A DNA stretch of 64,000 bases. Origin: Candidatus Micrarchaeota archaeon (GTDB lineage: Archaea; Micrarchaeota; Micrarchaeia; Anstonellales; Bilamarchaeaceae). How positions within the stretch are numbered: the first letter of the stretch is position 1; each line of letters opens with the position of its first letter. Shown here piece after piece: positions 2,613 through 3,860 of the stretch. Made by a program: the position numbers and the translations under genes. Location: positions 93,963-157,962 of the forward strand of contig JBBSVO010000003.1 in the NCBI GenBank assembly GCA_038046805.1. The letters are read 5' to 3'. Below the pieces are notes generated by a model. That model did no database searches. It was not told the DNA's origin and was given only the letters and a program-made list of their open reading frames with translations.

Positions 2613-3860
2613 ATGACAACTCATAGGCAATTGTCACTTCCTGGTCTGAACGCAACCCCCGGAACACTTGCAAGAATTCACCGGATAGATAGAAGACTTA
2701 CTCAAAAATGGGACGGTTTTAATGCACATATAGCACGTATTCTGGGAGAACTTGAGGATGCAAGCTCGGCATCTCTTTACGTGGTACGCACAGAAAAACC
2801 GAACGGAACTGCAACTCCAGAAAGCGAACTGGCATTTTCATCAAAAGTAGTACGAACCGTATTAACTGAAGAGCAGGCGAAAAGGAGAATCCCCCCATAT
2901 AGGGTAGTTTCTGCAGAAGATAGTTGGGGCAGTTTAAGCGATCCTGAAAGAATTCATCCTGCAACCACACTACGGGGAGGCATGTCGTTTATATTTAGCG
3001 ATGGAAGAACAGCATCTAGTTATACTACTGATGAGGGGGATTATACTCATCGTGAAATTGAATTAATAACACCTTCAACAACCAACCAGATACTTCTTCC
3101 ATTATATACGGAAGTAGAAGGAGAAACTCCTGAAAGATTGGGGGTTCTCTCTTTTGAAGGAAAAAACCTTTTTTGGAAAGATTCGACCTGCGTAACCGAA
3201 GCAGAGAAGATGCTGGAGATTATGCTTATCATGTCCCTCCTCTCAACAGGCATATCTGCAAAACTTGAATCAGGAACAGACGCACTTACAAAACTCATGA
3301 GAAAAAAAGAGTTCAAGAGTGAACTAAGCCGAGTGCTTAGAGCAGTCAAAGAAGGAACAATACCGGATTTTTCAATTGTGATGGCGGACATAGATTATTT
3401 CAAAAGGATAAACGACACACATGGGCACCTTGCCGGAGATGCAGTTCTTGAAATAGTCGCAGATGTTCTGATGAGCAGCGTCAGGAATGAGCAGAAAGTT
3501 GCACGAATGGAAGGAAGGAACGCCAATACCGAACATCCGATTTTTGATGTCGTTGCGAGATATGGGGGCGAGGAATTTGCCATAATCGCCATAACCGGCA
3601 TAGACGGAGCGTTAAAGATGGCCGAAAGACTCAGGAAATCCGTGGAAGAAGCATGCAGAGAAATAGAAGGCAAAGTCTCGGGAGTAACCTGTAGTTTCGG
3701 AGTCGCAAGCCTTTTGCAGTGCATAAATGGCATTTCAGATATCGGAGCAGAAACAGGGCGGCTTATAATGGAAAGAGCGGACCAGATGCTTTATCAGGCA
3801 AAACGAAACGGCCGCAATAGGGTTGAACCGCAACCTGCGCCAACTGATTGGGCATTATGA
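2613..3860 (+). CDS. GGDEF-domain diguanylate cyclase with uncharacterised N-terminal region
   Basis: The C-terminal 170 aa carry DIDYFKRINDTHGHLAGD, RYGGEEFAII, SFGVAS and ADQMLYQAKRNGRNRV, the full GGDEF catalytic signature. There is no RxxD I-site 5 residues upstream of GGEEF. Confidence 0.85.
   Translation: MTTHRQLSLPGLNATPGTLARIHRIDRRLTQKWDGFNAHIARILGELEDASSASLYVVRTEKPNGTATPESELAFSSKVVRTVLTEEQAKRRIPPYRVVSAEDSWGSLSDPERIHPATTLRGGMSFIFSDGRTASSYTTDEGDYTHREIELITPSTTNQILLPLYTEVEGETPERLGVLSFEGKNLFWKDSTCVTEAEKMLEIMLIMSLLSTGISAKLESGTDALTKLMRKKEFKSELSRVLRAVKEGTIPDFSIVMADIDYFKRINDTHGHLAGDAVLEIVADVLMSSVRNEQKVARMEGRNANTEHPIFDVVARYGGEEFAIIAITGIDGALKMAERLRKSVEEACREIEGKVSGVTCSFGVASLLQCINGISDIGAETGRLIMERADQMLYQAKRNGRNRVEPQPAPTDWAL

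Follow-up and report, generated by a model that had tools for sequence, protein, structure and literature searches.

Signalling by c-di-GMP is regarded as a bacterial invention, and the locus described here raises the question of whether an apparently intact GGDEF gene on an archaeal contig really belongs to its host and what its product might do. Archaeal GGDEF genes have been considered rare and suspected to represent contamination, and census papers left it open whether they are real (PMC5847659, PMC10086821). The original prediction likewise held them to be rare, in agreement with these reports, but a BLAST survey returned more than 300 archaeal GGDEF matches, many of them in DPANN and Asgard archaea (PMC8646023). 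The gene in question (2613..3860, + strand; open reading frame with Pfam and TIGR00254 matches) codes for a putative diguanylate cyclase of the sensor-GGDEF type with 415 aa. Positions refer to the 64-kb stretch of DNA analysed, hereafter the window. We consider it probable that this is a resident archaeal gene for a sensor-GGDEF c-di-GMP synthase, taken from Bacteria once and inherited vertically thereafter.

The catalytic GGDEF domain comprises residues 220–406 (3270..3830, + strand), as delimited by phmmer against the PDB, Foldseek and the family alignment. Pfam GGDEF (PF00990) matched with E=4e-33 (114.8 bits; cut-off 23.8) and NCBIfam TIGR00254 with E=5e-36 (123.9 bits; cut-off 37.4), while phmmer searches of the PDB returned WspR (E=2e-22) and PleD (E=2e-15). 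The domain had been predicted to be catalytically intact, and all hallmark motifs can indeed be read in the translation. These are D259-I-D261-Y-F263-K264-R-I-N267-D268, G271-H-L-A-G-D276, R316-Y-G318-G-E-E-F322 and Y394-Q-A-K397-R-N-G-R401-N402, the third including the GGEEF active-site motif (G318–F322; 3564..3578, + strand). The PleD equivalents, assigned by motif spacing and what is established for PleD, are D327, K332, N335, D344, R366, GGEEF 368–372, K442 and R446. On this assignment the DxD-FK metal/phosphate-binding motif (PleD D327, K332) is present as D259/D261/F263/K264, the guanine-specifying Asn and Asp (PleD N335, D344) as N267 and D276, and the transition-state-stabilising Lys and Arg (PleD K442, R446) as K397 and R401.

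In an alignment of six family members, whose overall identity falls to 29–32% at the extremes, D259, D261, K264, N267, D268, D276, R316, GGEEF 318–322, K397, G400 and N402 are invariant; R401 is kept in five of the six and replaced by Lys in P0122. R316 and the GGEEF motif are invariant across 34 aligned sequences. An AlphaFold2 model of the whole protein reached a pLDDT of 80.9 (an earlier model built from four sequences only, pLDDT 41.9, was discarded). Its GGDEF part is predicted to adopt the palm-like GGDEF fold (Foldseek E=1e-14), with target-normalised TM-scores of 0.81–0.88 on WspR, DgcB and GcbC and of 0.84–0.88 on isolated GGDEF domains.

A departure from the canonical domain concerns the inhibitory site, the allosteric RxxD motif that many but not all diguanylate cyclases carry five residues ahead of GGDEF. 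The position of the RxxD motif reads P309-I-F-D312, and none of the six family members carries an Arg there, in accordance with the predicted absence of this site. Its usual context is taken by a family-specific insertion of up to ~24 residues (288–311; 3474..3545, + strand), located between the helix following the GHxxGD motif and the strand leading into RYGGEEF. The insertion, which appears as a gap of 12–18 residues opposite WspR and P0015, a bacterial GAF-GGDEF protein, divides the Pfam GGDEF match into two stretches. It is found in all six members, with R291 and R302 invariant. As RxxD is absent and replaced by a conserved insertion, classical product inhibition of the enzyme would not be expected from its sequence.

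Which product is formed can be approached through the guanine-specifying residues. In Hypr enzymes, Ser occupies the position of PleD D344. Here both of these residues, Asn267 and Asp276, are retained; this speaks for GTP as the substrate and against a cGAMP synthase of the Hypr type, and the product should therefore be c-di-GMP rather than cGAMP. It could be argued that the protein does not act as a c-di-GMP synthase in vivo, but forms another product (cGAMP, pppGpG), hydrolyses NTPs, or serves only as a sensor of GTP or another ligand. There are precedents among other GGDEF proteins, the Hypr enzymes making cGAMP and the GGDEF domain of YybT being an ATPase (cited in PMC8646023, PMC10086821), and the family-specific insertion lies beside the active-site strand. 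Moreover, no known c-di-GMP receptor or phosphodiesterase was seen in the 64 kb. We nevertheless regard this alternative as unlikely, since the GTP-binding, metal-binding and catalytic residues are invariant in a family otherwise only ~30% identical, and since Asp276, the equivalent of PleD D344, is kept.

As the original prediction had noted for EAL, HD-GYP and PilZ, none of the called genes in the window is assigned to one of these families, and the same holds for MshEN. The T2SSE ATPase at 45186–46631 showed no T2SSE_N/MshEN match, and no c-di-GMP riboswitch was found, Rfam at its gathering threshold returning only 5S rRNA in the window. An HD protein at 62628–63800 was considered as a candidate HD-GYP enzyme and rejected, being of the HD plus HD_assoc_2 type and lacking the GYP motif. 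With no recognisable degrading enzyme (EAL/HD-GYP) or receptor (PilZ/MshEN/riboswitch), no complete signalling circuit is apparent in the window. One might speculate that a DPANN archaeon uses c-di-GMP without the known bacterial receptors and phosphodiesterases, either through unrecognised archaeal effectors or by aiming it at a host or partner cell. To this idea we assign a low probability; if true, the orphan sensor and the insertion replacing the I-site would represent adaptations of the enzyme to that role.

The region preceding the catalytic domain had been described as 240 aa long and devoid of a recognisable sensor domain. A Pfam-free region does exist, its length being ~220 aa, and at the sequence level the description holds, no Pfam match being obtained at E<0.1. 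In the AlphaFold2 model, however, a compact alpha/beta domain (residues 1–195; 2613..3197, + strand), a putative ligand sensor, is followed by a long helix (residues 196–219; 3198..3269, + strand) that may serve in signalling and dimerisation. The sequence of the N-terminal region is an orphan, with four matches among 1.84 billion representative proteins and about six protein clusters worldwide, and a word-index homologue search with its profile returned a fragment only.

GAF domains consist of an N-terminal helix, an antiparallel sheet and a C-terminal helix that continues towards the output domain. The model shows two N-terminal helices (residues 16–30 and 36–45), then sheet strands at 50–58, 73–81, 96–99, 125–129, 133–138, 146–150, 158–166 and 174–183, and finally the helix 196–219; this order of elements is compatible with the GAF fold. 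Sequence comparisons with GAF domains (families PF01590, PF13185 and PF13492 were considered) gave marginal signals. Among PDB sequences the family profile picked out the GAF domain 3o5y (E=0.62), and an hhalign comparison with the GAF domains of GAF-GGDEF matches reached E=0.0034 at a probability of 9.5% over 28 columns. A BLASTP alignment with P0015 is collinear over residues 139–406 and runs into the C-terminal part of its GAF domain, the last GAF helix being collinear with helix 196–219. In the latter, every family member keeps M204, L205, S208, S211, G213 and S215. Judging from the model and these weak signals, the N-terminal domain is probably GAF-like.

These features suggest a soluble two-part signalling enzyme in which the alpha/beta, probably GAF-like, domain would bind a small ligand and the long helix would connect it to the C-terminal GGDEF domain. 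If it works like the sensor-GGDEF enzymes of Bacteria, two chains would pair via their helices. Ligand-driven movement of the helices may then juxtapose two GTP-loaded GGDEF domains, allowing the formation of 3',5'-cyclic di-GMP.

A putative promoter element of the archaeal type precedes the gene. A TATA-box-like element, TTTATAAATA (2582–2591, + strand), can be read ~31 nt before the ATG, and boxes of the TTTWTAAA type are present at about −30 in four relatives (L007, L010, L016 and L015). Going by the usual features of archaeal promoters, we take this element to be the promoter. Its distance of 31 nt from the start codon implies, as far as can be judged from the sequence, a leaderless mRNA.

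The gene had been placed between tRNA-Ser and tRNA-Thr, and both tRNAs proved to be real once two introns were spliced out of each. Neither was reported in the raw DNA by ARAGORN, with or without its intron option, or by Rfam at the gathering threshold and at E≤10, which is explained by the two introns in each gene. Manual exon finding and in silico splicing, followed by ARAGORN, identified tRNA-Ser(CGA) (2294–2499, + strand; spliced product 82 nt) with introns at 2332–2345 (14 nt, position 37/38) and 2376–2485 (110 nt, position 59/60), and tRNA-Thr(CGT) (3917–4205, + strand; spliced product 72 nt) with introns at 3932–4070 (139 nt, D-loop) and 4092–4169 (78 nt, position 37/38). The splice junctions are corroborated by relatives. 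In L016 and L019 the T arm of tRNA-Ser is uninterrupted and identical to the predicted junction; the tRNA-Thr of L019 lacks the D-loop intron and that of L016 the anticodon-loop intron, both matching the predicted junctions. An intron at position 59/60 has been reported for Micrarchaeum (PMC3239211).

On the upstream side the gene for triosephosphate isomerase (TIM; 1582..2235, − strand; 217 aa; Pfam TIM E=1e-42) provides a synteny anchor. The short length of this protein marks the archaeal type of the enzyme. TIM adjoins the GGDEF gene in L007, L010 and L016, and adjoins a site devoid of GGDEF in L019. Downstream lies a gene for a 216-aa protein (5411..6061, + strand; aligned across relatives) with two hydrophobic, apparently membrane-spanning segments recognised by eye. 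It is 85% identical in L007, 59% in L016 and 47% in L015, and matches no Pfam or NCBIfam family. Because it is the downstream neighbour in all four GGDEF contexts, this two-TM protein was considered as a dedicated partner. This was rejected, as the family is Micrarchaeota-wide (3307 homologues, all named ones from archaea of the Micrarchaeota group), also occurs without GGDEF and hence is not specific to the gene. A PADLOC search matched neither the GGDEF protein nor its uncharacterised neighbours to a defence system. The interval between the TIM and two-TM genes is variable, an epimerase gene being present only in the window and in L007.

The position of the gene exactly between two tRNA genes had led to the suggestion of a recent landing of acquired DNA at a tRNA. 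An island of this kind would account for the variable TIM-to-two-TM interval and for L019, in which tRNA-Ser and tRNA-Thr are only ~140 nt apart with no GGDEF between them. The evidence from the gene itself speaks against it. Composition was compared with the rest of the window and is native rather than foreign, the GC content being 0.446, GC3 0.358 (0.402 ± 0.046 for the genes of the window) and the codon-usage distance ranking 15th of 44 genes. None of the window's called genes is assigned to an integrase family, and a repeat search revealed no att-like direct repeats around the gene. Furthermore, the archaeal promoter box is conserved, and the order TIM, tRNA-Ser, GGDEF, tRNA-Thr is maintained in relatives with GGDEF proteins 76%, 57% and 32% identical to that of the window. 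As for L019, it groups with the GGDEF-bearing L016 (82% identity in TIM, 66% in the two-TM protein), so that one loss is simpler than several gains, and the absence of GGDEF is most simply explained as a loss. A recent integration therefore appears very improbable.

This leaves an older origin to be considered. In a neighbour-joining tree the six family members split from their best bacterial matches with a bootstrap of 149/200 (75%), and scans of GTDB and of JGI metagenomes yielded only one further locus each. The identities are not fully congruent between neighbours. The GGDEF protein of L010 is 57% identical to that of the window and only 33% to that of L016, whereas its TIM is 78% identical to that of L016 and 71% to that of the window; accelerated evolution or transfer between members of the phylum may lie behind this. 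The gene was likely acquired from Bacteria long ago, at the base of this Micrarchaeota subclade. Uptake would most likely have been a single early event, after which the gene would have become established between tRNA-Ser and tRNA-Thr, with an archaeal promoter gained or retained, and have been passed on vertically, with loss in at least one lineage.

The archaeal surroundings noted originally are evident from several sides. The contig material bears the source name 'Candidatus Micrarchaeota archaeon' (groundwater; a phylum within DPANN), and besides the multi-intron tRNAs the window carries genes for archaeal-type proteins, among them ThrRS with a tRNA-Thr_ED domain, class I LysRS, the archaeal CCA-adding enzyme, PurP, cupin-type GPI, Nop56/58, DTD2 and diphthamide synthase. 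The host is a tiny symbiotic archaeon with a reduced genome. The 415-aa protein is identical on 11 contigs from independent assemblies, and in at least six of these assemblies, drawn from NCBI, ENA and Logan and derived from different samples, the gene is flanked left and right by the same neighbours, the longest of the contigs measuring 331 kb. That bacterial DNA was misjoined to an archaeal contig by assembly chimerism or binning contamination, as the published warning on archaeal GGDEF matches (PMC5847659, PMC10086821) and the exclusively bacterial closest matches beyond the protein's own family might suggest, is practically precluded by this recurrence, together with the archaeal tRNA and protein genes on the flanks, the native composition and the orthologues at the same position in diverged Micrarchaeota. 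The contig is thus neither bacterial nor chimeric, and the GGDEF gene truly belongs to the chromosome of a Micrarchaeota (DPANN) archaeon from groundwater.

The locus consequently provides a clean positive case that GGDEF genes do exist in Archaea, combining an intact active site, intron-rich archaeal tRNA flanks, an archaeal promoter, native codon usage and same-site orthologues in diverged Micrarchaeota. It also supplies a concrete protein for expression and assay and, should this be active, grounds to seek archaeal c-di-GMP receptors.

In kind, the protein is a new member of a known enzyme type in an unusual host, and no new kind of system comes to light with it. Its closest counterparts are bacterial GAF-GGDEF cyclases (the metagenomic P0015 and P0006, and the solved Dcsbis, 4zmu, from P. 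aeruginosa), which have the same order of parts, i.e. alpha/beta sensor, long helix and GGDEF, and share all active-site residues. P0015 is 36% identical over residues 139–406, a stretch that starts in the final strands of the sensor and takes in the entire GGDEF domain (BLASTP). In contrast to these cyclases, the first two thirds of the archaeal sensor show no detectable GAF sequence similarity, the I-site Arg is replaced by the insertion 288–311, and the gene has an archaeal host and promoter with no c-di-GMP partners visible in the window.

Among proteins of solved structure, the response-regulator diguanylate cyclases WspR (3bre) and PleD (1w25) match best in sequence; they share the GGEEF site and the fold, with a target-normalised TM-score of ~0.84 between the isolated GGDEF domain and the archaeal model. 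They differ in their REC input and in an RxxD I-site that is functional (R242/D245 for WspR, numbered by chain index), where the archaeal protein has an orphan sensor and Pro309. The top Foldseek match was the phytochrome-activated IsPadC (5llw), aligned over 436 columns spanning the sensor and GGDEF parts. In both proteins an alpha/beta domain on the sensor side is joined to GGDEF by a helix; in 5llw we take this domain to be of the GAF/PHY type and the helix to be a coiled coil. With an RMSD of 23 Å, a query-normalised TM-score of 0.37 and 17% sequence identity, the two match in modules, not in arrangement, and the archaeal protein has no PAS domain or chromophore site. Archaeal GGDEF proteins noted before are Methanocella arvoryzae CAJ37382 and a protein of Candidatus Micrarchaeum acidiphilum with REC and an inactivated GGDEF (PMC5847659). 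The latter likewise represents GGDEF in an archaeal genome of the same phylum; going by its description, the protein reported here differs from it in its intact active site and its input domain.

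The gene at 2613–3860 (+) encodes a 415-aa protein whose C-terminal half is a GGDEF domain (Pfam PF00990, E=4e-33, 114.8 bits at a cut-off of 23.8; NCBIfam TIGR00254, E=5e-36); an internal insertion breaks the Pfam match in two. The closest solved structures are those of the bacterial diguanylate cyclases WspR (E=2e-22) and PleD (E=2e-15). Every motif named in the original prediction was found: D259-I-D261-Y-F-K264-R-I-N267-D268 (DxD-FK), G271-H-L-A-G-D276 (GHxxGD), R316-Y-G-G-E-E-F322 (active site) and Y394-Q-A-K397-R-N-G-R401-N402 (C-terminal). Judging from motif spacing, we take their PleD counterparts to be D327, K332, N335, D344, R366, GGEEF 368–372, K442 and R446. 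The catalytic and guanine-binding residues are all invariant in a family whose deep branches share only 29–33% identity overall; the active site is intact and under purifying selection. Asn267 and Asp276 point to an enzyme specific for GTP, not to a Hypr-type cGAMP synthase. The position of the inhibitory I-site (RxxD), five residues before GGEEF, reads P309-I-F-D312 and lacks the Arg, so that product feedback at this site is not expected. A family-specific insertion (residues 288–311) precedes the GGEEF/I-site position and makes this segment 12–18 residues longer than in WspR and in the bacterial GAF-GGDEF protein P0015. Its R291 and R302 are invariant in the family and, speculatively, the insertion might itself take part in regulation.

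Residues 1–220 gave no match in Pfam or NCBIfam. The AlphaFold2 model built from a 34-row alignment of six family members and trimmed bacterial GGDEF domains was usable (mean pLDDT 80.9); 10-residue blocks of the N-terminal domain mostly score between ~71 and 91, with low-confidence stretches at 1–20, 61–70 and 101–110. The predicted N-terminal part has two helices followed by a sheet of ~8 strands with short helices between them, and a predicted 24-residue helix (196–219) leads into the GGDEF domain. On balance, the order of elements in the model and the LLPLY...LGVLSFEG hairpin favour a GAF-like sensor of the kind commonly joined to GGDEF in bacteria. Profile matches were marginal, both to the GAF domain 3o5y (E=0.62) and, using hhalign, to the GAF domains of bacterial GAF-GGDEF matches (E=0.0034, probability only 9.5%). 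BLASTP aligned P0015 collinearly over residues 139 to 406, and the top Foldseek match was the phytochrome-activated diguanylate cyclase IsPadC (436 columns). The original statement that this region has no recognisable sensor domain is thus accurate as to database families, but the model and the marginal GAF signals speak against a sensor-less protein. By analogy, the protein would pair as a dimer via its connecting helices, ligand bound in the sensor would shift the helix register, and two GTP-loaded GGDEF domains would then meet to form c-di-GMP.

Reading the sequence revealed a split tRNA gene on either side of the GGDEF gene, both on the + strand. These are tRNA-Ser(CGA) at 2294–2499, with introns at 2332–2345 (position 37/38, 14 nt) and 2376–2485 (59/60, T-loop, 110 nt), and tRNA-Thr(CGT) at 3917–4205, with introns at 3932–4070 (D-loop, 139 nt) and 4092–4169 (37/38, 78 nt). 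Spliced in silico, the 82- and 72-nt products were called tRNA-Ser(cga) and tRNA-Thr(cgt) by ARAGORN. The predicted junctions match unbroken arms in Micrarchaeota relatives, namely the Ser T arm in loci L016 and L019, the Thr D arm in L019 and the Thr anticodon arm in L016. The predicted flanking tRNAs were therefore correct. Micrarchaeum tRNAs have been described with several introns at non-canonical sites, 59/60 among them, which a broad-specificity splicing endonuclease processes (PMC3239211), and the intron-bearing tRNAs that immediately flank the GGDEF gene at either end are an archaeal signature.

Standard tRNA finders overlook these split genes. On raw DNA, ARAGORN reported only one tRNA gene, at ~1196–1346 (-), called tRNA-Gly(tcc) at 1197–1271 by default and tRNA-Ile(gat) at 1196–1346 with a 79-nt intron under the intron option; the tRNA-Gly(UCC) call has an enlarged D-loop and 26.9 bits against the Rfam gathering threshold of 29. 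At that threshold, Rfam returned only 5S rRNA from the window DNA and neither flanking tRNA. Comparison of the window genes with their orthologues (L007, 7535–8000 and 9252–9760; L010, 1771–2094; L016, 7655–8000 and 9195–9460; L019, 3567–4014) showed that exons are kept while intron sets differ among closely related Micrarchaeota, a pattern implying that introns are often gained and lost. Their positions are the D-loop, 37/38 and 59/60, and their lengths run from 14 to ~139 nt, much longer than the 13–25 nt of ARMAN-2 (PMC3239211). In L007, the tRNA-Ser 5' end (TTCGCTGGAGTC) is present twice, ~55 nt apart, at ~7590–7660 upstream of tRNA-Ser, and may mark an additional intron close to the acceptor/D junction or what is left of a rearrangement. 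Just past the window's tRNA-Ser, at 2500–2560, lies a GC-rich hairpin (GGCAGCAGCCAAGTCTGCC) with T-runs after it, and L016 has a hairpin in a similar place. Termination or RNA processing is a possible role for this element, which would part the tRNA from the GGDEF promoter.

Such tRNA flanks could point to a recently landed island, but the evidence does not bear this out. GC is flat across the region, and the composition of the gene is within the window's range (GC 0.446; GC3 0.358, within ~1 SD of the 44 window genes at 0.402 ± 0.046; codon-usage distance 15th of 44). No att-like repeats were found around the gene, and none of the called genes of the window has a recorded integrase family. 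A TATA-like box, TTTATAAATA (2582–2591), lies 31 nt before the GGDEF ATG, a spacing that is the geometry of a leaderless archaeal mRNA; similar boxes occur ~30 nt upstream of the start codon in L007, L010, L015 and L016. Moreover, the order GyrA ... triosephosphate isomerase (TIM; 1582–2235, -), tRNA-Ser, GGDEF, tRNA-Thr persists as GGDEF identity to the window protein falls, being complete in L007 (76%) and L016 (32%) and kept on the TIM side in L010 (57%), where the contig ends.

Contamination or chimerism is effectively excluded. The exact protein is encoded on 11 contigs, and the six places retrieved, from six different samples (NCBI GCA_964366365.1; ENA ERZ1300416, ERZ2470813; Logan ERR3858127, SRR32696700, SRR32696698), have identical neighbours; a 331-kb Hainich groundwater contig carries other window genes. 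The window encodes ThrRS with the archaeal editing domain, class I LysRS, archaeal CCA-adding enzyme, two PurP proteins, cupin-type glucose-6-phosphate isomerase, Nop56/58, DTD2, diphthamide synthase, TrmB and a type IV pilus-like ATPase and membrane protein pair. The source name 'Candidatus Micrarchaeota archaeon' is attached both to the nearest homologue of the GGDEF protein and to a sequence that matches the product of a window gene at 100% identity. The archaeal context originally proposed therefore holds.

The gene is best read as a bacterial-type sensor-GGDEF gene that was acquired once, long ago, and inherited vertically since. When the N-terminal 220 aa were compared exhaustively by phmmer with 1.84 billion representative proteins, only four matched, and both homologue searches combined define a family of ~6 clusters (the window protein, P0001, P0002, P0003, P0122 and P0123), to which GTDB representatives contribute only UBA10214 and JGI metagenomes one contig. 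For the GGDEF domain alone, a single split separates the six archaeal sequences from the 28 bacterial domains most like them (NJ bootstrap 149/200). The nearest non-family matches are without exception bacterial GGDEF domains (36–46% identity, with alignments covering under two thirds of the query), among which no specific donor stands out. In L019 (JGI 3300037810, Ga0376277_0038701; 3509–4049), TIM, tRNA-Ser, ~140 nt, tRNA-Thr and a two-TM protein gene follow one another and GGDEF is absent. Since this locus is nearest to the GGDEF-bearing L016 (TIM 82%, two-TM protein 66%), loss is simpler than repeated gains, and the empty site most likely reflects precise loss. GGDEF and TIM identities are partly incongruent, L010 grouping with the window by GGDEF and with L016 by TIM; rate differences or transfer within the phylum may account for this.

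An NAD-dependent epimerase/dehydratase gene (4208–5191, +), between tRNA-Thr and the two-TM gene, occurs there in the window and L007 only, not in L016 or L019, which marks the interval from TIM to the two-TM gene as a variable spot. The DNA gyrase A gene contains an intein in the window's organism (L001, upstream of the window start, 1–3538) and none in the UBA10214 relative (L007 1–2420). A Y1 transposase gene (PF01797, IS200/IS605-type; 40440–40913, -) between the two PurP-like genes is the one mobile-element gene observed across the window.

As originally noted, no EAL, HD-GYP or PilZ partner, nor T2SSE_N/MshEN, is recorded for any called gene of the 64-kb window; Rfam found no c-di-GMP riboswitch there and PADLOC no defence association. 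The HD protein at 62628–63800 was rejected as HD-GYP, being of the HD plus HD_assoc_2 type with no GYP motif. The two-TM gene (5411–6061, +) lies near and downstream of the GGDEF gene in every context, immediately adjacent in L015. Its 216-aa product has two hydrophobic segments in the middle and, towards the N-terminus, a motif that is highly conserved (IALDHYDDIFSDFDPSP), with no family match in Pfam, NCBIfam or PADLOC. A role as dedicated GGDEF partner was rejected, as its >3300 homologues, the named ones all from Micrarchaeota-group archaea, also occur without GGDEF; it is an uncharacterised product of a lineage-wide conserved core gene.

An archaeal signalling census found GGDEF essentially absent from finished genomes, left contamination open and recorded, for Candidatus Micrarchaeum acidiphilum, REC combined with an inactivated GGDEF (PMC5847659). 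More than 300 archaeal BLAST matches, many in DPANN and Asgard MAGs, have been mentioned (PMC8646023), and a 2022 review regarded presence on archaeal contigs as still to be confirmed (PMC10086821). GenBank already annotates the closest homologue, from a Micrarchaeota MAG, as a GGDEF domain-containing protein; with the earlier reports, the existence of archaeal GGDEF genes is thus known at database level. Added here is a well-controlled case. The gene stands between intron-bearing archaeal tRNAs, has an archaeal promoter and codon usage native to its surroundings, and shows deep synteny, with one relative having the site empty; the active site that it encodes is intact and conserved, and the sensor is an orphan that is probably GAF-like. 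The locus reveals neither a new mechanism nor a new system; the gene is a useful, testable entry to possible c-di-GMP signalling in DPANN archaea, and its product is a known kind of enzyme in an unusual host.
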